From NCBI GenBank assembly GCA_041671645.1, contig JBAZBD010000001.1:21561-85560 (forward strand): a stretch of 64,000 bases of DNA, read 5' to 3'. The notes under the pieces are model-generated. The model was not told the origin of the DNA, did no database searches, and saw only the letters and a list, made by a program, of their open reading frames with translations. Below, piece by piece: positions 16,126-40,040 of this stretch (position 1 is the stretch's first letter; each line of letters begins with the position of its first letter). Both the position numbers and the translations under genes were made by a program. The DNA is from Patescibacteria group bacterium. Lineage in GTDB: Bacteria; Patescibacteriota; UBA1384; XYA2-FULL-43-10; 1-14-0-10-43-13.

Positions 16126-17997
16126 CTAGCTCTGTTTTGGGCAGCTCCCGCCCATATCCACTGCAGTTTCGTCACCGTCCTGGACTCCGTTTGAGCAATT
16201 TGCCGGGACAGCTGTGCCCGTGCCGACGAGCCAGCGCTCCTGCCAGGGTACGTAGACTGACTTGAAAGTCCTGGTTTGCAAATCAGTACCGTCGGCGGCT
16301 GTGACTTTATAATTAAAGCTGGCGGTCGCGCCCTGATGCGATTTCTCAATTCGTTTGGTCTCCCCTGCCGCCATGGTCGGAGTTTCGACATAGACCGGCG
16401 GATCTGGGTTGGTGTAGTCATAAACCGTCGGAGTCGAGACCTCGATTTTCCGACTGTCTTTCGTGCCATAGAAGTCGAAGATGATCTTGGTGCCCTCAAT
16501 CCTTGATTGAATCAAAACCGAGTTAGCGTAATTGTTGACGAACTTGAAATCTGGAGCCGGGTCATAGATCGTGGCGTCCATCCCGACGGGAGGCTCATAA
16601 TACGAAACTCGGTATTTGTGATTTTGGCGATCGGTAATCTTCATGCCCGAATTGAGAGCAGCTCGGAATAAAGTCGAGGACACTTGGCAAAGCCCGCCAC
16701 CAAATTCTGGAGTTGTCGAATTATCCTTGATCACCAGCTCCTCAAGGTAGCCAGTCGAGGCGTCGATAGCGCCCAGGTGAGCCAGAGTCGAAAATTCCTC
16801 TCCTGGTTTGAGCAAAACTCCGTTCAGGGCGGCCGCGCCTACGGTCAAATTGTGCACACGGTTCACCGGAGAGCCTTTGAAATTGGTCATAGCAGTACCG
16901 ATCTGCTCGTTGATACCGAGACTGGCGATATCAGTATCTGCTACGTCCGGCTTCTTCTCGGTGATGACAAGAGCGATGGTTTTGGTATCAGTAGCGGCCA
17001 TATTGGTAGAGACACGGGCCAGAATTAGGCTCTTGATACTCTCTGTCACGCTATCTTGATTGAGCGAACGCCCATTTTTTGAAGGAGTGAAGACGGTCAC
17101 TTTGCCATTTTCGACAATAAGTTTGGAGCTAACTGGTTCGTTGTCTATGCCTTTGGCCAGCGCTTCGCTAAATTTTCTAATACGAGTATCGTTGGTGCTA
17201 AGCTTCATATTGGCATCATCGCTGACGAACCCAAAGAATCCGGCCAGTGTATCTTTGTCTATTTTGATCTCCTGGTCTGATCCAGTTAAAGTGATTTCTC
17301 CGCCGTCAATTATCTGATTTGCCTTGGCCAGAGCGGCATTTGCGTTTTCGATCGTAATCGTCGGCTTGTAATTTTCTCTCTCGAAAGCGATATCCAGGCA
17401 TCGGATCGCCTGGAAACAAGACTGGAAGGCCTCATTCATCTTTAGCTGGTTGAGCCTTTTGCCCTCCTGGCGTTTGTCGACAAGCGTGAATCTATCGCCG
17501 TTGTATTCCAGAGTGTAATCTTTGGCATTTTCGTCAATTTCCTTGGCGATGCTGGCAATCTTTTCGGCCAGTTGAGTCGCATTGTAGGTGTAGACGGCCG
17601 GATGGACAGAATCTTTGTAGACAGTCTCCAATTGCGCCCAAGCCGCCTTGGCGACCCTCTCGTCACGACCAACCTGCCAAAGGCTATTTACTGTTGCATC
17701 CAGATCATACTGGAGCCCAATATCGCTCGGATTGATAGAGTACTCCGCGCCAGTCTCCATGTAAATCAATTTGATCGGATTTTTGAGGACATCTCCAGCA
17801 TTTGATGATAATTCTTCTGAGGCGCTCTTCTTCTTCATCCCGCCCAGGTCGAGTTCGCCGATATGTTGCCGTGGAAAGATTTTTTTCGAGTAAAAGAGTG
17901 AATATCCAGCGAATAGAATCAATGACAACGCCAAAAGGCCCGCTACCGCTAGCAGTCCGATCCGCAGAATTTTCTTCGTTTTTGGCTTAATGTGCAT
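16126..17997 (-). CDS. VanW/YoaR-family secreted protein
   Basis: N-terminal TM anchor, repeated PG-binding-like region and a VanW core (GGGLCQVSSTLFRAALNSGMKITDRQNHKYRVSYY). Start is ATG 17997 or TTG 18003. Confidence 0.75.
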   Translation of the reverse strand: MHIKPKTKKILRIGLLAVAGLLALSLILFAGYSLFYSKKIFPRQHIGELDLGGMKKKSASEELSSNAGDVLKNPIKLIYMETGAEYSINPSDIGLQYDLDATVNSLWQVGRDERVAKAAWAQLETVYKDSVHPAVYTYNATQLAEKIASIAKEIDENAKDYTLEYNGDRFTLVDKRQEGKRLNQLKMNEAFQSCFQAIRCLDIAFERENYKPTITIENANAALAKANQIIDGGEITLTGSDQEIKIDKDTLAGFFGFVSDDANMKLSTNDTRIRKFSEALAKGIDNEPVSSKLIVENGKVTVFTPSKNGRSLNQDSVTESIKSLILARVSTNMAATDTKTIALVITEKKPDVADTDIASLGINEQIGTAMTNFKGSPVNRVHNLTVGAAALNGVLLKPGEEFSTLAHLGAIDASTGYLEELVIKDNSTTPEFGGGLCQVSSTLFRAALNSGMKITDRQNHKYRVSYYEPPVGMDATIYDPAPDFKFVNNYANSVLIQSRIEGTKIIFDFYGTKDSRKIEVSTPTVYDYTNPDPPVYVETPTMAAGETKRIEKSHQGATASFNYKVTAADGTDLQTRTFKSVYVPWQERWLVGTGTAVPANCSNGVQDGDETAVDMGGSCPKQS

Positions 17998-18066
17998 CGC
18001 CAATATTAATCATTTATCTGTATATTCACATCTTAACAACTGAGGGGAAATATTGGAAGGCCATAC

Positions 18067-21261: not shown

Positions 21262-21355
21262 AACTAGTTACGCTGGTAAATCTTACATGCCGGCTGACTG
21301 CAAATTGACAACGAGGCAACGTGCCTCAATATATTCTGAAAAGGAGGACGCGAAC

Positions 21356-22498
21356 ATGCGTTCAATCGTTCTGGCCACTCTGGCCCTTTTTGCCGCTCTG
21401 CTAATGAGTGGCTGTAATGGAAATTCTTCCATATCGACCCCAATCAAAAATAACCTCAGCATCACTGTTGAGCGTTACGACGGTGCTGCGTGGCAGACCG
21501 TCGAAGTTGGAGAGAGTGTTTTTGAGAGCGACGAGCTCTCATTTGACGTATTAGCCCCCGCAATCAAACGCGGTGGGGTGGATATTGTCTGGTCAGTTAA
21601 GAAGGCTGGTTTCGAAATCACCGGAAACGGTGGAAAATCGTGGAAGTTGATGGCCGGTGATTACATCATCTCGGCTCAACTTGCCATCTCCGGTAGCCCT
21701 GTATTGCTTCGAGAGTTGACCGTTAAAGCTGGCTCCAGACCAATCCCGCCAGCGCCACTTGCTTGGAATCCAGTCTTACGAGGCTACACCCCGTATAGTT
21801 CCGCAAACAGCGTCTCAACACAGGCAAGTAGCTACACGCTACAACGTAGCGGTGACAAATTCTTGGCCAAAGTCGGCCAAAAATTGACAGTTGAGATTGA
21901 TCGAACGGATCACCGCGGTGGACCTGGCGACGGTACAGTAGACCCCACCGCACCTCTATATAAAGAGGTAAAGGTGGTCGTCGTCAACAACATCGGCGCG
22001 GAAGTCCCCACAACCTATGAAGACTACTACTGGGGCTATAACGGCCTCCTCCCCGTCTTTACAGTAAAGGAGAGTGGCGACTTCACAGCAAAAGTTAGCA
22101 TTGTCCTTAGCGACAATACGCAAAAGGATTTTAGTCTCCAATTACGTGTCGAAGACGTGGTTGTAGACCAGCCGATGACCGTCGCCATCAAATGGCATTA
22201 CTATGACGGCACGCTTAAAACGCTTACCCTAACCAATAACACATTGTATGTGCTGCCTGGCAATCGCTACGATATTAAAGCGTCGAAACCAGGCTGGGAA
22301 GGTGCTCAGCAAGAAATCGTGATCTTTAATGAGATCACCCAGGTCTCCCCGCCGTTGATGGTAGGGAACGACTTTATTGAAGGACTTATGTCCGGAACAG
22401 GCGAAGGCACCGTTCGGGTGACCTTAAGCAAGGATGGACAATCAGTCCACACCGACTTCCACGTGGAAGTCATAGAGGGGCTAGGAATGGTCCGATAA
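21356..22498 (+). CDS. Hypothetical lipoprotein (beta-rich, Ig-like repeats likely)
   Basis: AAGGAGG RBS 7 nt before the ATG at 21356. Signal peptide with a lipobox-like LLMSGC. No recognised catalytic motif. The ORF-track start at 21287 lies upstream of the RBS. Confidence 0.65.
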   Translation: MRSIVLATLALFAALLMSGCNGNSSISTPIKNNLSITVERYDGAAWQTVEVGESVFESDELSFDVLAPAIKRGGVDIVWSVKKAGFEITGNGGKSWKLMAGDYIISAQLAISGSPVLLRELTVKAGSRPIPPAPLAWNPVLRGYTPYSSANSVSTQASSYTLQRSGDKFLAKVGQKLTVEIDRTDHRGGPGDGTVDPTAPLYKEVKVVVVNNIGAEVPTTYEDYYWGYNGLLPVFTVKESGDFTAKVSIVLSDNTQKDFSLQLRVEDVVVDQPMTVAIKWHYYDGTLKTLTLTNNTLYVLPGNRYDIKASKPGWEGAQQEIVIFNEITQVSPPLMVGNDFIEGLMSGTGEGTVRVTLSKDGQSVHTDFHVEVIEGLGMVR

Positions 22499-22620: not shown

Positions 22621-23820
22621 TTATTTTAGAGCACTTTTATAGACGTCGAGAGTTTTCTCTGCCGTGTCGGACCAATTGTATTTGGCCGCTTGTTTCAGGC
22701 CTTTGGTTGAGAGCTCTCCCCTGAGCTTCTCGCCGGTGGAGACTCGTGCCATCGCCTTGGCCATATCTTCGATATCGTATGGATCGAAATACAGTGGAGC
22801 ATCGCCTAGAATTTCTGGCATACAGGAAACGTTGGATGAGAGTACTGGCGTGCCGCAAGCCATAGCTTGGAGCGGAGGGAGGCCGAAACCTTCATAGAGC
22901 GAAGGAATGATATAAGCCATCGCGCCAGCGAAACCAATCACCTGCTCCTCGGACTTCTCTGGCAAGAAACCAGTAGTAATAATGGAATTTGGAATTTGGA
23001 ATTTGGAATTTAGGTATTCTCGGACTCTTTTAATTTCTTCCATTACCTCTGGCTCTGCAGGATCGGGTTTGCCCATTAGGACTAGTTGAACAAAATTACT
23101 AGATTCCCGGGTCATGGCTTCGCCTGCCCGAGAATGACAATCAACGACAAACTTCTCATAGGCCTGGATTAGGCGTACGAGATTTTTGTGTTTTTTCCAC
23201 ATTCCGGCATAGAGAAAATAATCGCCGGTGATGCCAAATTTCTCCTTAAAATCTTTGACCTTCGAGGTCTGACCTTTGACCGATTCGTTATATTTCAAAT
23301 CGAAACCGAGATGAGTGACCGCTATCTTCTCTGGTTTGACGCTGAATCTTTTGACAATGTCCTGTTTGGTTGTTTCTGAGACAGAAATTATCTTGGCTGA
23401 GTCTCGAGCCGCTGATTGCATTACCTTCTTGAAGGCGAATTGCTTGATCGGATTAGCTTGGAAGAATTCGGTGAATTGGGTCAAGTCATGGATCGTGACG
23501 ACATAATTGCCCCGATACATGACCGGGTGATTGAACTGGGTAAAGTGCACGAGATCATACTTTTTATGATTCAGAAAAGTTAGGAGTTTGGTCTGCTCCG
23601 CCATGGAATAATGGGGGACGTCCAGAATCTTGGTTTGAAAGTTAGATGATTTTCCGAATGTTGGGTAGGCCTTCAATTTCTCTAGGCCCTGCGGACGGAT
23701 TAATAGTGTATACTCATTTTCCTTATCCAATTCCAAGACTCGGCTCAAAATCTCAAGGGTGTAGATAGTAAGTGAAGAGCCTATACCAATAAATCTGCCG
23801 TCAATTAGAATTTTTTTCAT
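22621..23820 (-). CDS. Glycosyltransferase family 4 (GT-B, GT1-type domain)
   Basis: C-terminal EX7E region (PSLYEGFGLPPLQAMACGTPVLSSNVSCMPEILGDA). The start overlaps the upstream Wzy_C gene by 20 nt. Contains the 7-nt tandem repeat at 22984-23011. Confidence 0.8.
   Translation of the reverse strand: MKKILIDGRFIGIGSSLTIYTLEILSRVLELDKENEYTLLIRPQGLEKLKAYPTFGKSSNFQTKILDVPHYSMAEQTKLLTFLNHKKYDLVHFTQFNHPVMYRGNYVVTIHDLTQFTEFFQANPIKQFAFKKVMQSAARDSAKIISVSETTKQDIVKRFSVKPEKIAVTHLGFDLKYNESVKGQTSKVKDFKEKFGITGDYFLYAGMWKKHKNLVRLIQAYEKFVVDCHSRAGEAMTRESSNFVQLVLMGKPDPAEPEVMEEIKRVREYLNSKFQIPNSIITTGFLPEKSEEQVIGFAGAMAYIIPSLYEGFGLPPLQAMACGTPVLSSNVSCMPEILGDAPLYFDPYDIEDMAKAMARVSTGEKLRGELSTKGLKQAAKYNWSDTAEKTLDVYKSALK
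22984..23011. repeat. Tandem heptanucleotide repeat (GGAATTT)x4 inside GT4 coding sequence
   Basis: Four perfect head-to-tail copies (22984-90, 22991-97, 22998-23004, 23005-11), encoding ..LNSKFQIPNSI.. on the minus strand. The unit length is not a multiple of 3. Confidence 0.9.
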
Positions 23821-25048
23821 CTGTTTCCTTTTTTACATTGGCCAAAGCGACTCCGATCAGGATAAACAAAGAGTAGCTCAAAGCTGGATTATCTGCAAAA
23901 GTATGAAGAAATATGGCGGTGATCGACACGGCCAACAGTGAGAAGAAAAGTCCCAGCTCTTTGGCACGAATAAGGGCAGTAGAGACGAGGTAAGAGATAT
24001 AGAGCCAAAGAGCCAAGCCGATGGCACCAATCTCAAGCAAAAGTTGGATATACCAAGATTCGGAAATTATACCTCCGTATTTGATGGCAATTGGCCCAGC
24101 TGTGCCAAGTCCATTGCCAAAGATCAAAATCGCCGGCTCTGCTAGCCTGTGCGTCACTTCATCAATTGAACTCTGGAGAGCGAAATTGTGGCCGGCCTGT
24201 GATTGGCCATGAGTCATGAATTGCGAGACCGTGGCGTTCGGCCAGAACCAGAGAGCCACAGCCAACGCCACGACAGCGAGACCGATAATTGAAATTATTT
24301 TCTTGACCCTCAAATTTGACTTGATGAAGATGAAGACAAAGAGTGAAACTATCAGCCCTATCAGCGCCGCTCGAGAAAAGGAGAGGAAGACGCCTAGGAA
24401 TAATACGATCGCCAACGAGATCGATAATTTCTTGGCACTGCCCTTGAAAATATTGTTGATGCAGATGAAGAAAGCCGGCAAAAGGTATGAGCCGAGCTGG
24501 ATCGCGCCAAGCAAGAAGGAGGCGCTCCGCTGCAAATCCATGTCGAAGCTGACTAGGAATGAGCCATATCCGTTCTCGACCCCGGGGATGATTATTCGCC
24601 AATAGTCAGCAGGGAGAAACCTCTCCAGTATCGCCCAAATCGCCACGGCCAGAGCGGTGCCAAGATAAACCTTGGTCATTTTTTTGATGTCAATAAGATC
24701 GCCCAGATTGGATAGTCCAAAGAGTAAAACGAGTGGCATGAGGGTAAATCGGAATCCCTCAATCCCCTGGCCCCAGCTTGGTGAGAAGAAAAAGATAGAG
24801 AAAGCGCCAAGGATAAGAATCGCCAGAATCGGCAATTGCCTATACAAATTAGCTTTTGCCTTGGGGAGGATCGAAAAGCGGACAAGCGCGATAAGAGCAA
24901 TTATCAAAATGATTGGCTCATAGAAATGAAGTGCCCAGAAGGAGACCCCGGAATCAATATTAATTGAGTCAAAATAAAAAGAGAGTAACTGCTGGAAGGG
25001 CAAGAGGATGATTAGAAAAGCAAGAAAAATATTAAGAGCTTTTTTCAT
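23801..25048 (-). CDS. O-antigen ligase/polymerase-like membrane protein (Wzy_C family), paralogue 1
   Basis: About 12 TM segments, an SRAALIGL loop motif and the distal WYIQLLLEIGAIG motif. Start set at MKKALNIFL (25048), overlapping the upstream stop by 17 nt. Confidence 0.7.
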   Translation of the reverse strand: MKKALNIFLAFLIILLPFQQLLSFYFDSINIDSGVSFWALHFYEPIILIIALIALVRFSILPKAKANLYRQLPILAILILGAFSIFFFSPSWGQGIEGFRFTLMPLVLLFGLSNLGDLIDIKKMTKVYLGTALAVAIWAILERFLPADYWRIIIPGVENGYGSFLVSFDMDLQRSASFLLGAIQLGSYLLPAFFICINNIFKGSAKKLSISLAIVLFLGVFLSFSRAALIGLIVSLFVFIFIKSNLRVKKIISIIGLAVVALAVALWFWPNATVSQFMTHGQSQAGHNFALQSSIDEVTHRLAEPAILIFGNGLGTAGPIAIKYGGIISESWYIQLLLEIGAIGLALWLYISYLVSTALIRAKELGLFFSLLAVSITAIFLHTFADNPALSYSLFILIGVALANVKKETDEKNSN

Positions 25049-26264
25049 TGTTTTGGCTTCCCTTCCCAAGCAAAAATGCTGAGGCGAAAACGAGCCAGAA
25101 GATGACCGAGAGATCGTTCTTGAAATAGGTCGTGTCAAATAAGCCATGGATCAGGATCGCGGACATAGCGGCGGCCACAAAATATTTGGTATTGCCGACC
25201 GATGCCCTCCAGGTATTTACGAAGAAGCTGATGATGAGGCCGAAAAGTGCAATGATGCCAACTAATCCCAAATTGAGCCAGAAAGCGAGGAAGAGATTGT
25301 GCGGGTGAATTGCGTATGGGAGGCCAAACTGTGTGAAGCTGGGATTGTTGAGGGCCACGACCGCCACCTTGTCCTGGAAGTCCCCCATGCCAATGCCAAA
25401 CAAATAATCTGAATTGATCAGTTGAAAACTGTAGCGATAAATTTCGGTACGCACAGTCTGAGTTGTCAGCAAACTGTCCGCAATTTGTGTCAGGAAGAAA
25501 ATTGCTATTGCAGATATGACGCCAAGGGCCGTCCACTTCAGAAACTTTCCTCTAATGAAGCTAAACGAGACAACCACAAGGCCAGAGAACAAAGCAATCA
25601 GCCCTCCGCTGGATTTACTCAAGACAAGCGCAGTTATTGCGATGAGGATTGAAACTATTTGAACGAAAAGAAGAAAATTGAATTTTCTCCAATTGACAGA
25701 GACAGCGGCGAGAAGCAGGACAGGAACGATGAACATCGTCAGATAATTTGGCGATTCGAAAGGACCAAAGAATCTTTGCTCACTAATATATTGGGCGAAA
25801 GAAGAATCGGTGCTTTGATAAAGCATCGGCGCAATCAGCCCTAGTCTTTGCAAGATAGCCCAGAGAGAAATCAGGAAGAGTGGGACGAAGAGAAGACGCA
25901 ATGATTTGATGAAGCCTTCACGGTCCTGGCCGAAGAGATTGATGATAGAGAGATAAAACATTATAGGGATTACAATCCAGCCCTTGGCGATTCCGAGAGA
26001 GACAGTGCTTGTTCCGTTGGCGATTAAGCTCAAGACAGCGGCAAAAACTACCAGATAAGCCCAGGGAGAGCCCCAGTTCCAGCTCTTCTTCTGTGATAAT
26101 TTCAAAATCAAAACCAAGAAGAAGAAAATGAGAATCAAAAGTTCAAGCGGATTGGTCCTGATCGAGCCGATCAAGGTAAAGCGAAAAATATAGGCCGGCA
26201 AAAAAATTAGTACAAGAGAATAGGCAGCAAAGGAAAACGACCTCAAATTTAATTTATTTTTCAT
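25032..26264 (-). CDS. O-antigen ligase/polymerase-like membrane protein (Wzy_C family), paralogue 2
   Basis: Polytopic protein with SKSSGGLIAL and IHPHNLFLAFWLNLGLVG motifs typical of Wzy_C proteins. 11-nt overlap with the upstream gene. Confidence 0.7.
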   Translation of the reverse strand: MKNKLNLRSFSFAAYSLVLIFLPAYIFRFTLIGSIRTNPLELLILIFFFLVLILKLSQKKSWNWGSPWAYLVVFAAVLSLIANGTSTVSLGIAKGWIVIPIMFYLSIINLFGQDREGFIKSLRLLFVPLFLISLWAILQRLGLIAPMLYQSTDSSFAQYISEQRFFGPFESPNYLTMFIVPVLLLAAVSVNWRKFNFLLFVQIVSILIAITALVLSKSSGGLIALFSGLVVVSFSFIRGKFLKWTALGVISAIAIFFLTQIADSLLTTQTVRTEIYRYSFQLINSDYLFGIGMGDFQDKVAVVALNNPSFTQFGLPYAIHPHNLFLAFWLNLGLVGIIALFGLIISFFVNTWRASVGNTKYFVAAAMSAILIHGLFDTTYFKNDLSVIFWLVFASAFLLGKGSQNNEKSS

Positions 26265-27576
26265 TTTGTTTGAATTGATATGAATTTAGCCAAGCCAAGA
26301 AGACCCAAAACGAAATTACATACAAAGTAGAGAAGAAATTATATTGGATCAGGACCGCCAGCATGCCGAGAGAGAGCGCAATCACCGTAGATTTTTGAGC
26401 GAGCGGAAGTGATCGGGTCGCCTTCCGAATTTCGATCGCCAAGAAGACCAAGAAAAGAAGGAAGAGAGTGAGTCCGACAGCACCGTTCTCAGCTAACAAT
26501 TCCAAATATTCGTTGTTAACTATCAGATACTGGCCGTTTGCAAGCTGTGCAGCCGGAGTGTAAAGATAGCCGAAGCTGGCTGGACCGGCGCCAAAAATTG
26601 GCTTTTTCTTAAATGAATCTATGGCCGAGCCATAAAATCCAAGCCGTTCGAAAGTCGAGTAGTCCGACCTCTGGCTCGGGACAACGTTGGTCGTCTGCTG
26701 TAAAAAACTTGAAGTTAGCTGAACTTTTTGGCCGTCCTTTGGTGGGTTCTTGATGTCTCTAACCATTTGATTGAGCCAAATCAGACCAAAACAGATGCCG
26801 AGAGATAAGATGAATGCGACAATGCCGCCGCCGATCTTGGCAAAACGATTGGCGATAGTCTTATTACAGATTATATAAATCAGGAAGATCAGTAGAGCCA
26901 CGCCCATGCCCAAGAAAGCGCCTCGTGACATTGTGAGCAGAAAGTTCACCAAGAATAGTACGATCAGCCAAAAAGTTGAATTGAAAAACTTAGCTCCAAA
27001 GATATATTTTCTCAGAGATATAAGGATCGGGATGATTAGAAAGTTTGCAAAATATAACGGCTCCAAAGCGACAGATTGAATTCGGGCAAAGCCAAAAACT
27101 TCCTTGGTATAGCGTTGTAGCAAGCCAGTAAATGTTGTCGGGGCGTCAAAAGTGTCTCCCAGGAATTGTACAAGACCGAAAATAGAAATGAAAATAGCAG
27201 CGGCAATTAGGAATTTTTCAATTTTCTCAAAGCTAATCTTGGCGATAACGCGAGAAAAGGAGAAATAAATCAAAAACATAAACAGCCAGAGCAAGGTGAA
27301 AATTAGTCCGCGTTTGGTCGGTGCAAGCATGAAAGAGATCAAGTCTGAGATGAATAATCCGACCAGGATAACCTCAGACCCTCTGAATTTGACAAATTTA
27401 TCCTTGCGAAAGAGGAGGCCAAAAAGCCAGCAGGAAAGGAAAGCGATAGCCAAGAGATAGCTGATCTTGACCGTGAACCCTCCAACGTCGAAAGTCGGGA
27501 TTCGTTCGAAAGGCAGGAAAAAAAAGATGGCTAGGACGAGGCCTGATAGGATGTTTGGTAGAGTAACTTTCTTCAT
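26254..27576 (-). CDS. O-antigen ligase/polymerase-like membrane protein (Wzy_C family), paralogue 3
   Basis: Polytopic protein with MSRGAFLGMG and NNEYLELLAENGAVG motifs. It has a larger extracytoplasmic loop (residues ~270-340) than the other two paralogues. Confidence 0.7.
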   Translation of the reverse strand: MKKVTLPNILSGLVLAIFFFLPFERIPTFDVGGFTVKISYLLAIAFLSCWLFGLLFRKDKFVKFRGSEVILVGLFISDLISFMLAPTKRGLIFTLLWLFMFLIYFSFSRVIAKISFEKIEKFLIAAAIFISIFGLVQFLGDTFDAPTTFTGLLQRYTKEVFGFARIQSVALEPLYFANFLIIPILISLRKYIFGAKFFNSTFWLIVLFLVNFLLTMSRGAFLGMGVALLIFLIYIICNKTIANRFAKIGGGIVAFILSLGICFGLIWLNQMVRDIKNPPKDGQKVQLTSSFLQQTTNVVPSQRSDYSTFERLGFYGSAIDSFKKKPIFGAGPASFGYLYTPAAQLANGQYLIVNNEYLELLAENGAVGLTLFLLFLVFLAIEIRKATRSLPLAQKSTVIALSLGMLAVLIQYNFFSTLYVISFWVFLAWLNSYQFKQNEK

Positions 27577-27692
27577 AGATTTATTATACCTTATTATTTA
27601 TATTTTTTTTGGTGGGGTAATTGCCTCATAAAAAGCAAATGCCCCCAGGCAAGGGCTTAAAAGTTGTATGAAGCTATGATAAAATTAGTTTG

Positions 27693-28871
27693 ATGATATT
27701 GTCAAATTGGGACAGAAAATTTGTGTCTGCTATTCTCTGCGTATCCGTGTTTTCTCTGACGCTCGCGGCAATGCAAAAAGTTCATGCTGAAATCAACAGC
27801 ACTGATTTTGTAAATAATAAATCCTACAACAATCTGATCTCCAACAGGGACTTTATCGATATCGGATCGATGACCCAGGACGAAATTCAAGCCTTCCTCA
27901 ATACTAAGGCCTCTTATCTAAAAGAATTTTCTGAGGGTGGCAAGAGCGCTGCACAAATTATTTATGAGGCGGCTCGAGGCAAGAAAAATACTGCCGCCAG
28001 AGATGGCGAGGATTACAGCACTTATCTAGGTGAAACATATAAGAATGTCACGGTCAACGAAAGCACCGGCACCGTGAGCCCCAAAGTACTGCTTGTGATG
28101 CTGCAAAAGGAACAAAGCTTGATCACTCGAACTGAACGCAACGATGACGCCCTAACGATCGCCATGGGCTACGGCTGCCCCGATTCGAGCAGTTGCTCCA
28201 GTCATTATTTCGGCTTTACTTTCCAAGTCGAATGGGCGGCTTGGCAATTGCGTTACAATTATGGACGCTCACAAGGTAAAGGAACCGATTTTCAGGTCGG
28301 CCAGACGATGACCGGGGTAGACGGACAATACGATGTCACATTTATGAACGAAGCCACAGCTTCGCTCTATCGCTATACTCCGCATGTTTTCGATAGCGCC
28401 TATAATTTTATGAACTTGTATGATAGTTGGTTCACTACCCACGCCGATAGTGAAAGTGACGACACGGCCAACTTCACCCTCAAAACTTATACTAACGCCC
28501 AAAAAGTTTCTGGCGGGAAAAGAAGCGACACTATCGCTTATCTGAACAACAGCCCCCTAAGCGACGGTGGGCTCGGATCTAGAAGTTGGAATATTAATTT
28601 TACCGATCTGGCTTACGGGACCAATAATTACACCTTAGAATACAAGGACGCGGGCGGTACTCTGGTCGATACAAAATCGATAGTGATCGAGATTCACAAA
28701 CCTGGCGATATCGACGGCAATAACGCCGTCGACGTCCAGGACCTTTCGATTTTCGCCGCCTACTGGTCGCAGATCAATCCAGAGGAGCCACTGGCCAATT
28801 TGACCGGTGAAGTCGGCCATGCCATTAACGTTCAGGATCTTTCAATCTTGGCGGGGTATTGGGGAAAGTAG
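27693..28871 (+). CDS. Secreted protein with C-terminal dockerin-like module
   Basis: N-terminal signal/anchor (FVSAILCVSVFSLTLAAMQKVHA), a conserved unknown central domain (LLVMLQKEQSLI..AMGYGCPD) and a C-terminal duplicated segment, GDIDGNNAVDVQDLSIFAAYW ... INVQDLSILAGYW. Confidence 0.6.
   Translation: MILSNWDRKFVSAILCVSVFSLTLAAMQKVHAEINSTDFVNNKSYNNLISNRDFIDIGSMTQDEIQAFLNTKASYLKEFSEGGKSAAQIIYEAARGKKNTAARDGEDYSTYLGETYKNVTVNESTGTVSPKVLLVMLQKEQSLITRTERNDDALTIAMGYGCPDSSSCSSHYFGFTFQVEWAAWQLRYNYGRSQGKGTDFQVGQTMTGVDGQYDVTFMNEATASLYRYTPHVFDSAYNFMNLYDSWFTTHADSESDDTANFTLKTYTNAQKVSGGKRSDTIAYLNNSPLSDGGLGSRSWNINFTDLAYGTNNYTLEYKDAGGTLVDTKSIVIEIHKPGDIDGNNAVDVQDLSIFAAYWSQINPEEPLANLTGEVGHAINVQDLSILAGYWGK
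28704..28868 (+). other. Dockerin-like module (two ~22-aa repeats, first with canonical Ca-binding loop)
   Basis: DIDGNNAVDVQD fits the D-x-D-x-N-x-x-x-D-x-x-D EF-hand-like loop of type I dockerins and is followed by an LSIFAAYW helix. The second repeat keeps the helix (VQDLSILAGYW) but has a degenerate loop. Confidence 0.55.
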
Positions 28872-28978
28872 TTACAATTTTTAATTACTAATTTTTAATT
28901 TCTAATCAAATCTTAATCATTAAAAATTTTAAATTGATTAAAACTTAGGAAATACGAATTAAGAATTAAAAGGATAAT
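28872..28978 (+). repeat. AT-only intergenic cassette, copy B (related to 12618-12711)
   Basis: It reads AATTTTTAATTACTA..TTTCTAAT..ATCATTAAAAATT..GAATTAAGAATTAAAAGG with the inverted repeat AATTTTTAAT/ATTAAAAATT. It has the same block order as copy A read on the minus strand. Confidence 0.5.
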
Positions 28979-30232
28979 ATGAAGAAAAATTTGTTAGTAT
29001 GCGTATCGGCGTTCTTGTCAGTTTTATTTTTGCCCACGCTTGCCATGGCGGCTGGTATTTCTGTCTCGTCTGGCAGTCTGAAATACCCAGGAGATGAAGC
29101 TACTGGCACCGTTACGGCTAGCGGCACTACTTTTAATGCCTTTTCGGGGACGATCGGGTCCGGCGGCGTGATCAAAATAGTGAGCTGTTCTCCTGGAGAT
29201 GCCCTCTGGGTAAACAAGCCAAACGGAGCTGGCAGTTTTGCCGGAGCTTTGACTGAGCCAGTTTCCTCATTTCGGATCGCTTCCTGCAAATTGAGAGCTA
29301 GTACGACAGGCAGTGGAACATTCTCTGTCTCTGGAGTATCTCTGGCCGACAAAGGACCTATCGTCGGGACTGATGGCGACAGCACATCCTTCAGCATCGT
29401 TCGCCGTCCGACGCCCCCAGGTGCTATCTCCATCTCTTCGGCGACTCACGCTGACCAAAATACGTCCTACGAAGCGAACACCGTCATCTTGTCCTGGGAT
29501 CGGCCAAGCAATATTACCGGTTTCTCCTATCTTCTCGATCAGACCGCTGACACTATTCCTGGCGCGAAGGTGACCTCCAATGAGATGACCGTCACTTATG
29601 CGGATCAAGCAATCGGGACATATTATTTCCATATCCGAGGACAGAACAATGATGGCTTTGGCGACACTTCGCATTTCAAAATTATGATCAAGGAGCCAGA
29701 TCCAAAGATTAAGGAAGAAATTGCCAAACCCTCCGATATTTCAATCTCAAAAACAAGCGACTTCAAAAATATTATAGCTGACGGCACCGCATCAGGTATC
29801 AAGATCTCAGGCCTGACACTGCCAGAGTATATGGCTAACATCAAATTGGAACCATCGCCAAAGATACCTGAGGGCAAATTGATGTCGGCCAAGGCTGACG
29901 CCAATGGCAGATTTGAATTCCTGATCGACTTTCCGATACCAGCAGGGTCGTATATTTTGACAGTTCAGGGTCAAAACAACAAAACTTTAACCCCAGTCTC
30001 CGATCCGATTCGCTTCGAGCTCTCTCAAAAAGAGGGTGGATCAATCCAAATTGTTACGGCAAGCGATGAAAATGTCCCCATTATTCCACCCAAGAAATGG
30101 CATGAAAAAGTAAATTGGTTGGCGGTTTCTATCGCAATAGCTTCGCTTTGGTTGATTTCCGCAGCCATAATTGTTACTTTGGCAGTAAGGAAAAAGATAA
30201 ATTTGAAGAAATTCACTAAATTGATTGGTTAG
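28979..30232 (+). CDS. Cell-surface protein: signal peptide, cohesin-like domain, conserved THxDQ/YxLD domain, Ig-like region, C-terminal TM anchor
   Basis: Signal peptide MKKNLLVCVSAFLSVLFLPTLAMA. Residues 25-141 have the cohesin-like pattern (SSGS..FNAF..LWV..P..F.G..TGSGTFSVSGVSLADKG), followed by ISSATHADQ...GFSYLLDQTADTIP...YYFHIRG. The C-terminal TM is WLAVSIAIASLWLISAAIIVTLAV. Confidence 0.55.
   Translation: MKKNLLVCVSAFLSVLFLPTLAMAAGISVSSGSLKYPGDEATGTVTASGTTFNAFSGTIGSGGVIKIVSCSPGDALWVNKPNGAGSFAGALTEPVSSFRIASCKLRASTTGSGTFSVSGVSLADKGPIVGTDGDSTSFSIVRRPTPPGAISISSATHADQNTSYEANTVILSWDRPSNITGFSYLLDQTADTIPGAKVTSNEMTVTYADQAIGTYYFHIRGQNNDGFGDTSHFKIMIKEPDPKIKEEIAKPSDISISKTSDFKNIIADGTASGIKISGLTLPEYMANIKLEPSPKIPEGKLMSAKADANGRFEFLIDFPIPAGSYILTVQGQNNKTLTPVSDPIRFELSQKEGGSIQIVTASDENVPIIPPKKWHEKVNWLAVSIAIASLWLISAAIIVTLAVRKKINLKKFTKLIG
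29051..29401 (+). other. Cohesin-like beta-sandwich module
   Basis: The pattern resembles the cohesin-domain surface proteins annotated in many uncultivated small-genome bacteria. This is recognised from memory and not HMM-verified. Confidence 0.45.
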
Positions 30233-31660
30233 ATGAAAGAAAAACGAGCCATTTTTATCAGTACCGCTTCGCAAATAATTGTGCGATTTTTCACCTTGGC
30301 CTTTACTCTTATCGCGGTCAAACTGATCACAAACTATCTGGGAACCAAAGGAACCGGTGATTATAACACTATTAATACCTTCCTGGGCTTCTTCATTGTC
30401 ATTGCTGACCTCGGTCTATTCTCTGTAGCCGTAAGGGAAATCGCCAAAAATCCAGAAAAAGAGAGAAAAATTCTTTCGAATGTCCTGGCGATTAGAATTA
30501 TTACCGCGATCTTGGCTGTTATCTTTGCGGTGATAATAATGTTTTCTACAAAGTTCAGCCCAGAAGTAAAATTTGGCACTTTGGTCGGAAGCGGTTTTAT
30601 TTTCTTCAATCTGCTCTCGAGCGTTTACGATGTCGTTTTGCAGTACAAATTGCAGATGCAGTTCTCTGCGCTAGCTGAGTTTATAACTCGAATTATTACT
30701 CTGATCGCCCTGTATATCGTAATCAAAAGTCATGGGAATTTTTACTTGATCATGGCGACACTTACCTTTTCGGCGATACTAATATATTTCTTCAAAAAGA
30801 TTTTTTCTGATCGTCTGGCTAAATTCAGACCGGAATTCGACCAGAAAATATCAAAATGGATCTTCGATCTCGCTTGGCCTCTGGGAATCGTCTTCGTCAT
30901 GAATAATCTGTTTTTCAAGATCGACACTCTGATGGTAGCCTGGATCAAAGGATCGGTTGCTGTCGGGATTTATTCAACAGCTTACAAAGTGATCGAGGTG
31001 ATAGTTTTCATGGGCGGTTATTTTGCTAGTAGTTTGAAGCCTGTCATCTCCCGAGAGATAGATCGCGACAAAGAAGGCGTAGCCCGCATAATTCAAAAAT
31101 CGGTAAATATTATGCTGATTCTTTCCCTGCCGGTCACTATCATCTCAGTCGCCTTTTCCAGAGAGATAATCCTCTTTATTAGTAGCCCAGATTTTGCAAT
31201 TGGCGCGAAGGCCCTAATTGTCTTGTCCTTCACTCTACCATTTATTTATCTTGACACCTTGCTTGGTGAAGTGCTCCTGGCCAGCAACGCTCGGAAGTTA
31301 CTTGTCAAAATAGCTGTTTTTATCTTGGCTTTCAACTTTTTGACGAATCTTTACTTCATTCCGAAATACTCATACATGGGCGCCGCCTTTACGACCCTAA
31401 TGTCAGAAATAGTCTTGTTTGGCGTAAATTATTACTATACTAAGAAAATATTGCCCTATTCATTCGACAAAAAAATGATCGCAAAGATATTCGCGATTTC
31501 CTTGATCTCTTATTTTTTCGCCGTAGCGGTGAAACAGGCCACTTCTTGGCACTTCCTGATTATTATGGCTCTGACACTAGTTCTCTACATTCTTTTGCTT
31601 AATGCATGGAAGATACTCACTCTCGCAAGCTTGAAAGAACTGCGTAAAAGCGACCAATAG
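30233..31660 (+). CDS. Polysaccharide flippase (Wzx/MOP superfamily)
   Basis: 475 aa with about 14 TM segments and an N-terminal pattern typical of polysaccharide-biosynthesis (Wzx) proteins. The ATG directly follows the TAG of the cohesin-like gene. Confidence 0.75.
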   Translation: MKEKRAIFISTASQIIVRFFTLAFTLIAVKLITNYLGTKGTGDYNTINTFLGFFIVIADLGLFSVAVREIAKNPEKERKILSNVLAIRIITAILAVIFAVIIMFSTKFSPEVKFGTLVGSGFIFFNLLSSVYDVVLQYKLQMQFSALAEFITRIITLIALYIVIKSHGNFYLIMATLTFSAILIYFFKKIFSDRLAKFRPEFDQKISKWIFDLAWPLGIVFVMNNLFFKIDTLMVAWIKGSVAVGIYSTAYKVIEVIVFMGGYFASSLKPVISREIDRDKEGVARIIQKSVNIMLILSLPVTIISVAFSREIILFISSPDFAIGAKALIVLSFTLPFIYLDTLLGEVLLASNARKLLVKIAVFILAFNFLTNLYFIPKYSYMGAAFTTLMSEIVLFGVNYYYTKKILPYSFDKKMIAKIFAISLISYFFAVAVKQATSWHFLIIMALTLVLYILLLNAWKILTLASLKELRKSDQ

Positions 31661-34685: not shown

Positions 34686-35147
34686 CTATTTGTTCTGCCA
34701 GTCGTTGTGGAAATAAAATGATGGAATCTTCTCACGAGATTCCTCTTTTTTTGGCTTGTTTTTTTCGAGCGATATCCAAATTAGAAAATTGAATAATCCG
34801 ACGGGCAGAACGATCAGAATCGCAAAATAGAGATAGTTCACAATTAACTTCGTCGAGAGATAGATATCATCACTAGTCAGCCAAAGATAGGGCGCAGGAA
34901 TCTTCTTGAAGAAGAGTAGGAGTGCCATCGTCGTAATGATCAGTAAATTAACGATGTAACGTAATTTGACCTGGGAAAGAAACAGCAGGACGCCAGACAA
35001 TAGCGCTGCAAAACGAAAACGTCCGCCCCATTCTGGATGGTAGAAGGCTAACGTGAACATGATGATTATCAAAAGAGCAAATACCGATCTGATCGGAGAC
35101 TCGCTACTTTCGTTTTTTTCTTGTGGGGGCTGCTGGGGGTGGGTCAT
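34686..35147 (-). CDS. Small polytopic membrane protein, unknown function
   Basis: 153 aa with 4 predicted TM segments. The start overlaps the upstream gene by 44 nt, and an alternative internal start cannot be excluded. Confidence 0.4.
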   Translation of the reverse strand: MTHPQQPPQEKNESSESPIRSVFALLIIIMFTLAFYHPEWGGRFRFAALLSGVLLFLSQVKLRYIVNLLIITTMALLLFFKKIPAPYLWLTSDDIYLSTKLIVNYLYFAILIVLPVGLFNFLIWISLEKNKPKKEESREKIPSFYFHNDWQNK

Positions 35148-36597
35148 TTTTCTTCAGAATTAATACTTTATCATTATAAACTATAGAGTAATTCTTGAAA
35201 TCTGTGGGCGACGAGGTAGCCTCGGGCGGAAAGTAGATATAGTCATATTTGACTTCGTTGCCTTTCGCTAGATAGTCATCTAGGGCTGGCTTTTCAAAGA
35301 GCATATTATCATACACTAGATTGTAGCGATCACCTACCGCCTTGATCCATATGCCATAGCGCCAATAAGCCGCAATCGTTTTATCTTCGGGAATGTTGTC
35401 CCTTACCCAGGTGATGGCCTTTTGGTCCGATCCAGTCATAATTGCCTGGGCTCCCGGGTCATTCTTCTGCCAATTCAATAATACTGTGTTGGCGCTGTAG
35501 CTAGGAGCGATCGCAAGAAATGCGAGTATCGCGATTAATGTACAACGAGCAACCGCTGGCAAAATCACCGTTTTGGCTAGCGAATAGATCCCGACCGCCG
35601 CGAATACGGCCAGACCCATTTCGAAATACGGGTAGAAGCGAAATGAGAGGAAATATATCCCGAAAACATAGTTTAGCGACATGAAAAGCCCTGCGATTAC
35701 AAGGGCAAATCCAACCTTCACTTCATGCTTGACCCAGTTTTTCAACGAAGCGATAAGTCCAATTATAGCCAAGAATGGGACAAGGATGCGTTGTGGTTGG
35801 TCAGAAGTAAGGATCAGCCAAAACGGGCGCTGACCGTATCCCTTCGGATCGCCCGAGACGAAAAGTAAAAACTTTTCAATCAAGTCATTTTTGAAGAAAT
35901 AAGTAAGCAGTCCGGCCAAGGCATATATTGCCAATAAAATCAAAAGAAATTTCCTGCTCTCTTTGTTCTCTGACTCGACGAATGTAAGAACACAAATAGT
36001 TATGAAAAATAATACATATATGATAAACGAAAGCGGATGGGAAAAAATTAAAATTATTGAAAAAATAATTGTAAAGACGATATTCTTTTTTACAAAGAAA
36101 TAGAGCAGGAGTGCAAACGCAAACCAGCCCCACGTCTCTCCGAGAAGGCCCATCCTGATACCGTCGTTGGTCCAGCGACTTGTCACGAAGATCAGGGCTG
36201 ACAAGAAACCGACGATCCAACTCTTCGAGATTGATTTGGCGAGGAGCGCAACCCCGAGGCCGGCAAGAAAAAAGTAGAAGGAAATAGTTACAGTGAAGAG
36301 CCGAGGCAATTCTACCCCGTGGAACACAATGGAAAGCCATTTGAAAATTATCAGCGGGATCGGGTAGAACATCCCACATATATCGCTGAAGCTCATGGTC
36401 TTGATTCGAGTAATATGAGTCGCTGGATCATCGCCTATCGGAAAAGCAGTGACACGCGCGTATTGGAATGCAAAGTAATAGAGCAGATAAACAAAAAATG
36501 CCCCGACCAAACTTCTCCAAAGAAGGGGGTATTTTTTGAAAAAATTAGAGACTTTTACAATAGCCATTTCCTGATAATCATACCAGAAAATGGCCAT
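35104..36597 (-). CDS. Polytopic membrane protein, GT-C-like glycosyltransferase candidate
   Basis: 497 aa with more than 10 TM segments, an acidic first-loop motif (PIGDDPATH) and a soluble C-terminal domain. This architecture resembles GT-C enzymes; there is no direct sequence match I can name. Confidence 0.4.
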   Translation of the reverse strand: MAIFWYDYQEMAIVKVSNFFKKYPLLWRSLVGAFFVYLLYYFAFQYARVTAFPIGDDPATHITRIKTMSFSDICGMFYPIPLIIFKWLSIVFHGVELPRLFTVTISFYFFLAGLGVALLAKSISKSWIVGFLSALIFVTSRWTNDGIRMGLLGETWGWFAFALLLYFFVKKNIVFTIIFSIILIFSHPLSFIIYVLFFITICVLTFVESENKESRKFLLILLAIYALAGLLTYFFKNDLIEKFLLFVSGDPKGYGQRPFWLILTSDQPQRILVPFLAIIGLIASLKNWVKHEVKVGFALVIAGLFMSLNYVFGIYFLSFRFYPYFEMGLAVFAAVGIYSLAKTVILPAVARCTLIAILAFLAIAPSYSANTVLLNWQKNDPGAQAIMTGSDQKAITWVRDNIPEDKTIAAYWRYGIWIKAVGDRYNLVYDNMLFEKPALDDYLAKGNEVKYDYIYFPPEATSSPTDFKNYSIVYNDKVLILKKNDPPPAAPTRKKRK

Positions 36598-38806: not shown

Positions 38807-38807
<1 letters not shown>

Positions 38808-39970
38808 TATTTGATCTTCTTAGCTTTTTCCCATGGCAGATCTAGATCTGGACGGCCAAAATGGCCGTAGGCGGCGCATTGTCGATAGAGTGGTCGACGA
38901 AGTTTCAACTCTTTGATGATCATACCTGGACGAAGATCAAAGTTCTTGGCGATTTTTTCAGCGATTGCTTCATCAGAGATCTTACCCGTGCCCGAAGTGT
39001 TGACGTAAACAGACAATGGCTCTGGCTTGCCGATAGCGTAGGCGAGCTGGATTTCGCATTTGGAAGCAAGCCCAGAAGCTACAACGCTCTTGGCGACCCA
39101 ACGAGCGGCATAAGCGCCAGATCGGTCAACCTTCGACGGATCTTTGCCCGAGAAAGCGCCTCCGCCATGACGAGCATATCCACCATAAGTATCAACAATA
39201 ATTTTTCGGCCAGTCAGACCTGTGTCGCCCTCAGGGCCACCGATCACAAATTTACCTGTCGTATTAACATAAATCTTGGTCGCTTTGTCAATTTCAAAAC
39301 CATATTCCCTGAGCACTGGAGCGATCACTTTCTCGGTGATTTCTTTTCTCAAAGTCTTCTGGTCTTTGTCTTCTGCGTGTTGAGCGGCGATTAAGACCGT
39401 GTGAATTCGGGCTGGTTTGTCATTTTCATATTCAACAGTGACCTGAGATTTGCCATCAGGATAGAGACCTTTGACAATATTCTTCTTGCGAACTTCAGCT
39501 AGACGCTGGCAAAGTCTGTGCGCTAGCGTGATCGGAAGTGGCATCAGCTCTGGTGTTTCGTCGCATGCAAAGCCAAACATTAAGCCCTGATCCCCTGCAC
39601 CAAGATGCTCCAAGTCTTCCTTCACAATTTTGCCGCCAGCGGTTTGTTCGAAGCTATCAACACCCTGGGCGATGTCCGAAGACTGTTCTTTGATCGCGGT
39701 CATGACACCGGAGGATGAGTGGTGGAAGCCACAACCGTCATAGCCGATCTCTTTGATTACGTTTCGCGCAATCTTGGCCATATCAACGTATGCGTTGGTC
39801 GTAACTTCACCTGCTACCACGGCAACACCATTGGTCAACAACGTCTCTACCGCGACTCTGGATTTTTCGTCCTTCTCAAGCAACGCGTCTAGAACTGCGT
39901 CGGAAATCTGATCCGCCATTTTGTCAGGATGACCCTCCGTCACTGACTCGGAGGTAAATAAATAACTCAT
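38807..39970 (-). CDS. metK: S-adenosylmethionine synthetase
   Basis: [33 protein letters not shown] and [19 protein letters not shown] motifs. Start at MSYLFTSE (39970); the longer ORF-track N-terminus runs into the leader. Confidence 0.95.
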
Positions 39971-40040
39971 ACTAAGCTCCAATCCGCCAAAGGGCGGAGA
40001 ATTAAGAATATTGAATATAGAATCAAGGTTCGAACCCATA

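Follow-up and report, generated by a model that had tools for sequence, protein, structure and literature searches.

Two adjacent genes in a 64,000-nucleotide stretch of DNA (hereafter, the window, which covers 64 kb out of a contig some 868 kb long) probably encode a surface-display pair with one plug and one socket, in which a membrane-anchored cohesin, the product of gene 2, would retain a dockerin-tagged, lysozyme-like enzyme, the product of gene 1. The adjacency of plug and socket is kept across many related genomes, and thus the two genes very probably form a minimal system that keeps an enzyme at the cell surface. An earlier note on this DNA had proposed that the anchored cohesin-like protein tethers its dockerin-bearing neighbor. 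Homology at the family level and genomic coupling support this proposal, and it is from them that we infer the binding. The source organism is an uncultivated small-genome bacterium of the Patescibacteria/CPR. The features of the locus are as follows.

23801..27576, minus strand: three Wzy_C membrane proteins in tandem (O-antigen ligase/polymerase-like), oriented divergently to gene 1
27693..28871, plus strand: gene 1, 392 aa from the ATG, with an alternative TTG start at 27690 (ORF list)
27693..27791, plus strand: predicted signal peptide of gene 1, residues 1-33, with a hydrophobic stretch at 8-30 and the cleavage site, between QKVHA and E, placed by inspection only
27795..28442, plus strand: lysozyme-like (GH73-like fold) domain, residues 35-250
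28458..28697, plus strand: Ig-like "X" module, residues 256-335, ahead of the dockerin
28698..28868, plus strand: dockerin module, residues 336-392
28704-28769, plus strand: dockerin segment 1, GDIDGNNAVDVQDLSIFAAYWS, residues 338-359, with a canonical Ca loop
28797-28865, plus strand: dockerin segment 2, LTGEVGHAINVQDLSILAGYWG, residues 370-391
28872..28978, no strand: spacer between genes 1 and 2, 107 nt, AT-rich (sequence)
28979..30232, plus strand: gene 2, 417 aa (ORF list)
28979..29050, plus strand: predicted signal peptide of gene 2, residues 1-24, cleaved between LAMA and AG (hydropathy and inspection)
29051..29416, plus strand: cohesin-fold module, residues 25-146
29417..29698, plus strand: FN3-like domain, residues 147-240, with motifs THADQ and YYFHIRG
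29711..30058, plus strand: third, membrane-proximal domain, residues about 245-360, conserved in the family alignment and presumed to be Ig-like
30116..30187, plus strand: C-terminal transmembrane helix, residues 380-403, followed by a basic tail, RKKINLKK
30233..31660, plus strand: Wzx-type flippase, Pfam Polysacc_synt (PF01943) 79.3 bits, threshold 28.2

The ORF list and the junction sequence agree with the positions of the reading frames, the 107-nt gap and the contact between gene 2 and the flippase gene given in the earlier note; the TAG of gene 2 abuts the ATG of wzx at 30233 (ggt tag atg aaa, 30227-30238). The spacer carries an AAGGA ribosome-binding site at 28970-28974, and a terminator scan found no terminator-like hairpin in its 107 nt (28872-28978), which is consistent with co-transcription of the two genes. 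Spacing is tighter in other species, and the genes overlap in loci L042 and L055. An antisense ORF of 155 aa within gene 2 (28966-29433) was regarded as spurious.

Gene 1 ends in a dockerin composed of two segments, which are identical at 10 of 22 positions. Segment 1, already read as the Ca-binding loop and helix of a dockerin, has the canonical D/N positions (D339, D341, N343, D347 and D350). Segment 2 had been described as keeping only the helix, which is roughly right: the helix is kept, but a loop is also present (N369-L-T-G-E-V-G-H-A-I-N-V-Q-D382), two residues longer than the canonical one. Because of this insertion, Ca binding by segment 2 is doubtful in the clade of the window. In the next clade, segment 2 is canonical (DLNGDHVVNIQD).

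Scans of the two full-length proteins against Pfam and NCBIfam yielded neither a dockerin nor a cohesin. Pfam Dockerin_1 (PF00404, type I-like) gave no match on the full-length gene 1 protein; on the isolated tail it gave 16.4 bits (E=0.011), in segment 1 only and below the threshold of 22.9, and the single sequence reached a dockerin in the PDB only at E of about 0.6. Homologues revealed the relationship. A profile of 114 gene 1 homologues matched the solved dockerin 2y3n_B over both segments (E=1.2e-6), and beyond this chain it matched more than 15 dockerin chains, with 4fl4_A at 2e-4 and 2jnk_A at 7e-4. Furthermore, seven orthologues with 40-54% identity (P0010, P0015, P0024, P0039, P0063, P0100 and P0118) passed the Dockerin_1 threshold of 22.9 with 25.9-39.7 bits, and the match spanned both segments in six of them. 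Since orthologues pass Dockerin_1 and the family profile matches solved dockerins, the failure of gene 1 in Pfam indicates divergence rather than absence. The tail is conserved in 109 of the 114 aligned homologues. It was also considered that the C-terminal repeats are an EF-hand-type tail, which binds Ca for stability or binds wall or glycan, and that gene 2 merely begins with a generic spacer domain of the beta-sandwich type. The tail does show weak similarities to EF-hand proteins and troponin C, and dockerin-like repeats are present in many proteins with no known cohesin partner (Peer et al. 2009, cited in PMC9012536). We regard this explanation as very improbable.

The X module, which has beta strands at 261-334 in the AF2 model, matched two X-dockerin structures, 4u3s_B and 4wi0_B, weakly at the profile level (E about 0.05). 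The X module together with the dockerin is also found on unrelated cargo in L035 and L042 (HMM E 1e-22 to 1e-24), and the X module is missing from some orthologues, e.g., those in L013, L015 and L022.

Gene 2 has 108 homologues, whose sources give them no name beyond "fibronectin type III domain-containing protein" or "hypothetical". Hydropathy bore out the predicted signal peptide and the C-terminal transmembrane anchor, with windows 385-405 scoring above 1.7. The N-terminal domain has the cohesin fold, i.e., a nine-stranded flattened beta-sandwich of the jelly-roll type; classical cohesins are longer by about 20 residues. Pfam Cohesin (PF00963, threshold 24.1 bits) did not match gene 2 even at E<=10, and no cohesin was among the matches of the gene 2 family profile to the PDB. 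These matches were solely spurious ones to antibody heavy chains, aligned to the signal peptide and the first strands, and the single sequence retrieved nothing from the PDB but the FN3 region of lambda J. When the family of N-terminal domains was aligned with 13 CPR cohesin domains from proteins built like gene 2 (four of these domains pass the Pfam Cohesin threshold), hhalign gave a probability of 95% (E=3.7e-8, 108 columns). Distant relatives that share the FN3 domain are above the Pfam Cohesin threshold (L058, 27.8; L062, 40.4; L066, 35.4; L068, 30.4 bits). Thus, the failure of gene 2 in Pfam also reflects divergence, because its N-terminal domain has the cohesin fold and aligns to CPR cohesins. 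In summary, judged by the refuting condition set in the earlier note (no significant dockerin or cohesin HMM match), both proteins of the window fail Pfam, whereas the tests at the family level succeed. These two modules are the sole dockerin and cohesin within the 64-kb window.

The domain following the cohesin, noted before for its THxDQ/YxLD pattern, is present and is FN3-like, as indicated by matches to Pfam fn3 (E=1.1e-3) and Ig_J (2.9e-4), both sub-threshold, and to the lambda J protein (4.5e-5). Its motif is common to Pfam-positive cohesin proteins across the CPR. The third domain gave only faint matches to Y_Y_Y and Por_Secre_tail.

Gene order provides the strongest connection between the two proteins. 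A dockerin gene lies directly upstream and on the same strand in 48/48 GTDB species whose gene 2 orthologue is full-length, and the distance from the dockerin end to the start of the cohesin domain is 126 nt in the median, including a signal peptide of about 75 nt. Among 80 metagenomic homologues of the catalytic domain, 59 lack the dockerin and carry other C-terminal domains. A cohesin gene is next downstream in 16/16 dockerin-bearing homologues with enough downstream sequence and in 0/38 dockerin-less ones (Fisher p=5e-14, for loci that are not phylogenetically independent); one dockerin-less homologue (P0093) adjoins a subtilase instead. Gene coupling follows the dockerin, not the enzyme. 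The earlier note had reasoned that many dockerin-less homologues would mark the tail as unrelated low-complexity sequence. Such homologues are indeed common, but the coupling opposes this reading and indicates that the dockerin tail is a functional module.

The cargo is swapped in other lineages. Upstream of anchors of the gene 2 type we found there two copies of a C39-like peptidase (L035), an M11/reprolysin-like metalloprotease (L055, CPR2), a subtilase (L057, Dojkabacteria) and a 1105-aa protein that could be placed in no family (L042). The cargo dockerins in L035, L055 and L057 are above the Pfam threshold; that in L042 has no Pfam match and was found only with the family HMM. Some loci have a second cohesin gene, namely L088 and L058-L070, the latter having small cohesin-TM genes. 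In remote CPR loci, small proteins are encoded after the dockerin gene and ahead of the large cohesin gene; they fall below the Pfam Cohesin threshold and are homologous to cohesins (hhalign 99.7%).

These results bear on the possibility that the two genes are independent and lie together only as envelope genes, so that the dockerin would have another cohesin of the genome or of a host as its partner and gene 2 would encode an adhesin. The scan for cohesins and dockerins spans 64 kb of the genome, both modules of the window are below the Pfam threshold, cohesin-annotated CPR proteins are many and second cohesin genes exist, all of which would fit. However, adjacency in 48/48 species and in 16/16 loci against 0/38 dockerin-less loci, its survival when the cargo enzyme is replaced, and a cohesin divergence that tracks dockerin divergence make independence very unlikely. 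This last point came from a mirror-tree analysis (domain distance matrices of 40 unique loci, partial Mantel), which was used rather than residue-level mutual information, as no more than about 40 unique paired loci had the full set of domains. Cohesin distances tracked those of the dockerin (r=0.43, p<=5e-4) and the X module (0.40), but not those of the catalytic domain (0.07) or of the cohesin's own FN3 neighbor (0.04). The membrane-proximal domain of gene 2 also co-varies with the dockerin (r=0.39). The mirror-tree signal may therefore be called supportive, but not fully specific. Synteny points to the N-terminal domain of gene 2 as the likely dockerin binder.

The catalytic domain of gene 1 belongs to a large family. 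We found 1037 homologues of gene 1 (homologue search, 90% clustering), mostly from Patescibacteria/Berkelbacteria. In the AF2 model of gene 1 (pLDDT 93.2, pTM 0.86), the nearest folds to this domain are peptidoglycan glycosidases of the lysozyme/GH73-like type. The central domain had been called possibly cell-wall-related; because it appears lysozyme/GH73-like, such a role is supported at the level of the fold. The LQKEQS motif is invariant, and Glu140 (codon 28110-28112), also invariant in the family, is the candidate catalytic residue, located at the C-terminal end of helix 130-141 in the model. Neither Pfam Glucosaminidase (PF01832) nor SLT (PF01464) matched the catalytic domain of gene 1, a Foldseek search of the PDB with the gene 1 model had no match at E<=1e-3 and no lysozyme-like match, and a catalytic-domain profile found nothing in the PDB at E<=10. 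Thirty-four diverse catalytic domains searched against Pfam, PHROG and PDB profiles were assigned to no family, with a single SLT match in Pfam (E=0.17) among them. The lysozyme-like family, with more than 1000 sequences at 90% clustering, falls outside current family databases. Most likely, the enzyme cleaves a glycan of the peptidoglycan type. Autolysins of GH73, such as LytB of Streptococcus pneumoniae, the Atl glucosaminidase of Staphylococcus aureus and Acp of Clostridium perfringens, reach their place through wall-binding repeats of the choline-binding, GW or SH3 type. Gene 1 has no sequence similarity to them, and its targeting would be achieved by the dockerin.

From these features the following mechanism can be proposed. 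Gene 2 would be exported and its C-terminal helix would remain in the cytoplasmic membrane, while a stalk made up of the third beta domain and the FN3-like one would project the single cohesin from the membrane. The gene 1 product would be secreted via Sec, and its dockerin would bind the cohesin in a Ca-dependent manner, probably with help from the X module. The lysozyme-like enzyme would so stay on the cell surface, within or against the wall, without diffusing off, and there it might act in remodeling of the cell's own wall, in cell separation or in attack on a host cell's wall. Alternatively, it might trim the glycopolymer of the surrounding Wzx/Wzy cluster.

Cohesin-annotated proteins are common in CPR genomes and to our knowledge have no assigned partner or purpose. 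Here two small modules, of about 135 and 120 residues, allow a concrete partner to be assigned. A full-text literature search found no paper on this gene pair, which would count among the non-cellulosomal cohesin-dockerin systems. Cohesins of the ScaE type and of SdbA, OlpB and Orf2p are anchored by sortase/LPXTG or SLH domains. In contrast to ScaE with the X-dockerins of Ruminococcus flavefaciens (type III) and to the type II SdbA, OlpB and Orf2p of Clostridium thermocellum, the anchor here is a C-terminal TM helix, there is no scaffoldin hierarchy and no cellulase, the X module is absent from some orthologues and the organism is a CPR bacterium. In C. perfringens, the cohesins of NagJ (GH84) and NanJ (GH33) and the dockerin of NagH join secreted glycoside hydrolases to each other, whereas in the present pair one enzyme has a dedicated membrane anchor encoded by an adjacent gene. 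A precedent for the gene arrangement is ClcC/ClcD of Cellulosilyticum lentocellum, a single-cohesin gene beside a single-dockerin gene, whose products form a heterodimer in vitro (PMC13487519); here we infer one. ClcC/ClcD is cellulolytic and raises cellulase activity (PMC13487519), while here the cargo is lysozyme-like, the cohesin is membrane-anchored and the pair is conserved in a CPR clade. For the non-cellulosomal modules of Archaeoglobus fulgidus and others (Peer et al. 2009), partners and role are mostly unassigned, whereas gene adjacency indicates the partner here.

If the proposal is true, organisms with minimal genomes hold secreted enzymes via a membrane helix rather than by sortase or SLH domains, wall-lytic and proteolytic enzymes join the classes of cohesin-dockerin cargo, and attention is drawn to a large lysozyme-like family beyond current family databases. 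The pair would also be a new orthogonal cohesin-dockerin option for protein engineering. A wider reading can be offered tentatively, as a possibility somewhat short of even: socket-and-plug display might extend across the CPR/Patescibacteria, with a universal anchored cohesin encoded after any X-dockerin enzyme, the enzymes might be tools of episymbionts for remodeling their own wall or for breaching and digesting the host envelope, and the lysozyme-like domain might be a new family of glycan hydrolases. The enzymes comprised in this reading are the unclassified lysozyme-like hydrolase, C39-like, M11-like and S8 proteases, and others.

The pair lies inside a large glycan cluster, composed of a GT4, three Wzy_C genes, Wzx, GT2s, DegT and a second Wzx. 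Two of the Wzy_C proteins scored 64.5 and 55.4 bits in Pfam (threshold 31.7) and the third was below it, with 21.7; these genes are context and stand outside the docking pair. Glycosidases encoded in exopolysaccharide clusters trim or release polysaccharide. Docking could thus be real and yet serve the Wzx/Wzy pathway, the hydrolase trimming or releasing nascent surface polysaccharide at the export site instead of acting on peptidoglycan. This agrees with the location of the pair and with the presence of Wzx within 7 kb in 28/48 species and of Wzy_C in 22/48. Furthermore, the protease-cargo loci L055 and L057 have no Wzx or Wzy match, so that glycan genes accompany lysozyme-like cargo. We nevertheless consider a role in this pathway rather unlikely, because the nearest folds are peptidoglycan glycosidases, Wzx varies in position and orientation and has no match at 20/48 loci, and dockerin-less homologues of the enzyme exist outside glycan clusters. 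The link to Wzx suggested earlier is thus real but loose. The divergent arrangement of Wzy_C genes seen in the window recurs in L003, L006, L008, L017 and other loci.

In the window, the gene for a secreted protein with a lysozyme-like domain, an Ig-like X module and a C-terminal dockerin (gene 1), the gene for a membrane-anchored protein with a cohesin-like N-terminal domain (gene 2) and a Wzx-type flippase gene are arranged in tandem, head to tail, on the + strand.

Genes at the dockerin-cohesin locus
23801-27576, -, three tandem paralogous Wzy_C (O-antigen ligase/polymerase-like) membrane proteins, divergent from gene 1
27693-28871, +, gene 1, 392 aa; alternative TTG start one codon upstream
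28979-30232, +, gene 2, 417 aa; 107 nt 3' of gene 1
30233-31660, +, Wzx-type flippase; its ATG abuts the TAG of gene 2

The junction between gene 2 and the flippase, reported in the earlier note, is seen in the sequence as 'ggt tag atg'. A terminator scan of the AT-rich 107-nt spacer between gene 1 and gene 2 found no terminator-like hairpin, and an AAGGA site lies upstream of the gene 2 start.

Hydropathy revealed a signal peptide at the N-terminus of gene 1. The 22-residue duplication previously described in its tail is real; segments 338-359 and 370-391 are identical at 10 of 22 positions. Segment 1 has the canonical dockerin Ca loop (D339, D341, N343, D347 and D350) and segment 2 keeps the helix, as proposed, but the loop of segment 2 proved to be 2 residues longer than the canonical one. 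The suggested Pfam Dockerin_1 check gave no match to full-length gene 1 and 16.4 bits for the isolated tail (threshold, 22.9). The two-segment tail is present in 109 of 114 aligned gene 1 homologues, and seven tested orthologues pass the threshold with 25.9-39.7 bits (both segments covered in six). Furthermore, the gene 1 family profile matched the solved dockerins 2y3n_B (E=1.2e-6), 4fl4_A (2e-4) and 2jnk_A from C. perfringens NagH (7e-4). The sub-threshold score of the window protein thus reflects clade-specific divergence. The second Ca loop of the next clade is canonical: DLNGDHVVNIQD.

Hydropathy also bore out the signal peptide (1-24) and C-terminal TM helix (380-403, followed by RKK) that had been assigned to gene 2. 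In the middle of the protein are an FN3-like domain, for which the fn3, Ig_J and lambda J matches are weak, and another conserved domain, the third. Pfam Cohesin did not match gene 2, and the gene 2 family profile found no cohesin in PDB by sequence. More distant CPR proteins have the same FN3 module (HYFHIKA motif), and their N-terminal domains pass the Pfam Cohesin threshold (27.8-40.4 bits). The N-terminal domain family of gene 2 aligned with these Pfam-positive cohesins in hhalign (probability 95%, E=3.7e-8), in agreement with the cohesin-like module of the earlier note. Thus, despite the absent Cohesin HMM match, fold and profile comparisons show that this domain is a true cohesin, although shortened and divergent, and that it sits at the membrane-distal end of a type I membrane protein. 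In distant CPR loci of Parcubacteria type (comparison loci L058:3994-4899, L062:5890-6777, L066:5809-6771, L069:3104-3970 and L070:5173-6552), an extra gene lies between the dockerin gene and the gene of the large cohesin-FN3 protein. Its small product (about 290-320 aa) combines a signal peptide with a cohesin-like domain and a C-terminal TM helix. This product does not pass Pfam Cohesin, but hhalign shows its homology to cohesins (99.7%, E=4e-26); therefore, these loci have two cohesin anchors per dockerin gene.

Coupling of the dockerin and cohesin genes is clearly supported by comparative genomics. A full-length gene 2 orthologue was found at 48 loci when one genome per GTDB species was scanned with this family, and a dockerin-encoding gene was directly upstream on the same strand in all 48. 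The lysozyme-like domain was also present in 46 of these upstream genes. The two genes are mostly closer in other species than in the window, and overlap in some. The converse test used 80 metagenomic loci encoding the catalytic (lysozyme-like) domain: a cohesin gene was next in 16/16 dockerin-bearing copies with enough downstream sequence, versus 0/38 dockerin-less copies, whose C-termini are other domains (Fisher p=5e-14, a value inflated by shared ancestry of the loci). Dockerin-less homologues, which the earlier note had set against the tail, thus exist, but the 38 compared have no cohesin neighbour, which argues that the tail is a functional module. In one dockerin-less homologue checked separately, the neighbour is a subtilase. 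A search of the 64 kb of the window for competing partners revealed no dockerin or cohesin besides those of gene 1 and gene 2.

The adjacency is kept when the enzyme is replaced. Upstream of gene 2-type anchors are two C39-like peptidases in L035, a 1105-aa protein without family match in L042, an M11/reprolysin-like metalloprotease in L055 (CPR2) and a subtilase in L057 (Dojkabacteria). The C-terminal dockerins of the L035, L055 and L057 cargo proteins score above the Pfam threshold; the L042 protein has no Pfam match, and only the family HMM revealed its dockerin. The Ig-like module plus dockerin of L035 and L042 clearly matches the gene 1 unit (E 1e-20 to 1e-24), suggesting that the two form a mobile X-dockerin dyad. 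Two tandem dockerin-bearing cargo genes precede a single cohesin anchor in L027:503-2602 (two lysozyme-like copies) and L035:1718-6754 (where the peptidases carry He_PIG repeats), which implies competition or exchange at one socket.

Co-divergence was analyzed by a distance-matrix test (partial Mantel) on 40 unique orthologous loci from L001-L136. Cohesin divergence follows the dockerin (r=0.43, p<=5e-4) and the X module (0.40), and does not follow the catalytic domain (0.07) or its own FN3 neighbour (0.04). For the membrane-proximal third domain of gene 2, co-variation with the dockerin is as strong as for the cohesin (r=0.39, p<=5e-4). This could reflect either a rate artefact or a second contact, and cautions against over-reading the cohesin-dockerin co-divergence.

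The AF2 model of gene 1 (pLDDT 93.2, pTM 0.86) consists of a helical domain (about 35-250), a beta-sandwich (261-334) and a helical tail. The lysozyme-like assignment of the helical domain comes from one structure-comparison method, in which peptidoglycan glycosidases are the nearest folds. Against it, Foldseek with this model found no lysozyme-like match, and sequence methods gave no link between the catalytic domain and any Pfam, PHROG or PDB entry. The domain, a family without sequence match in these libraries, is therefore termed lysozyme-like at the fold level only. The family (27795-28442 in the window; also L156, L158 and L161) is large, with 1037 matches at E<=1e-3. Its motifs are an N-terminal IISDxxF...IQxFL, then LQKEQSL, AMGYGCPD and ATAxLYxYTPH, and the domain is also found in many different C-terminal architectures, e.g., NBR1-like Ig, FG-GAP/VCBS and NPCBM-associated.

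In the best-supported reading, in which we infer binding, Ca dependence, activity and substrate, the C-terminal helix of gene 2 would insert in the membrane and display a single cohesin on a stalk formed by two beta domains. Secreted gene 1 would dock onto it via its X-dockerin, which would keep a lysozyme-like hydrolase at the cell surface. One possible substrate is the peptidoglycan of the cell itself, in analogy to GH73 autolysins. A host cell wall is another candidate, because episymbiosis is common among CPR bacteria and the replacement cargos have degradative functions; a third is the product of the surrounding Wzx/Wzy cluster. Of the 48 species, 28 have a Wzx and 22 a Wzy_C within 7 kb, at variable positions. 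Since the Wzy_C family includes protein O-oligosaccharyltransferases, these proteins may glycosylate surface proteins.

The closest functional analogues are surface-anchoring cohesins that bind X-dockerins, namely R. flavefaciens ScaE and C. thermocellum type II cohesins, and the closest structural analogues are C. perfringens toxin-complex cohesins. Cohesin and dockerin modules outside cellulosomes are well known (Peer et al. 2009, as cited in PMC9012536), and an adjacent single-cohesin and single-dockerin gene pair of a cellulolytic Firmicute was recently found to form a heterodimer (PMC13487519). A full-text literature search found no description of the gene 1/gene 2 pair. Specific to this pair are the transmembrane-helix anchor, cargo of lysozyme-like or protease type in place of enzymes that act on plant cell walls, a catalytic domain that family databases lack, and the strict conservation, throughout a CPR clade, of a two-gene cassette whose cargo can be exchanged.

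As a whole, the window represents an extensive glycan-synthesis region in a Patescibacteria genome. Glycosyltransferase genes lie downstream of gene 1, gene 2 and Wzx. Neighbouring ORFs of the Wzy_C triplet overlap by 4 bp to 116 bp, and the same triplet is kept in L003, L006, L008 and L017. Three sizeable ORFs of this region, with 403, 497 and 684 aa (21287-22498 +, 35104-36597 - and 42356-44410 +), have no Pfam match at E<=1e-5. Upstream is a 625-aa VanW + PG_binding_4 protein (16126-18003, -). A SAM riboswitch (Rfam RF00162; 40097-40194, -; 49.9 bits, threshold 44.4) precedes metK (38807-40039, -), which is followed by genes for a PfkB-family kinase and S-adenosylhomocysteine hydrolase; the arrangement therefore resembles a SAM-cycle operon that sits within the glycan cluster. 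Because the TTG (40136) listed as start codon of an opposite-strand GT2 ORF overlaps with the riboswitch, translation of this ORF probably begins further downstream. A second Wzx-type flippase (58111-59403, -; Polysacc_synt 80.5 bits), located in the glycan region some 28 kb downstream of gene 2, adjoins more GT4 and DegT aminotransferase genes, suggesting two separate glycan pathways in one region.
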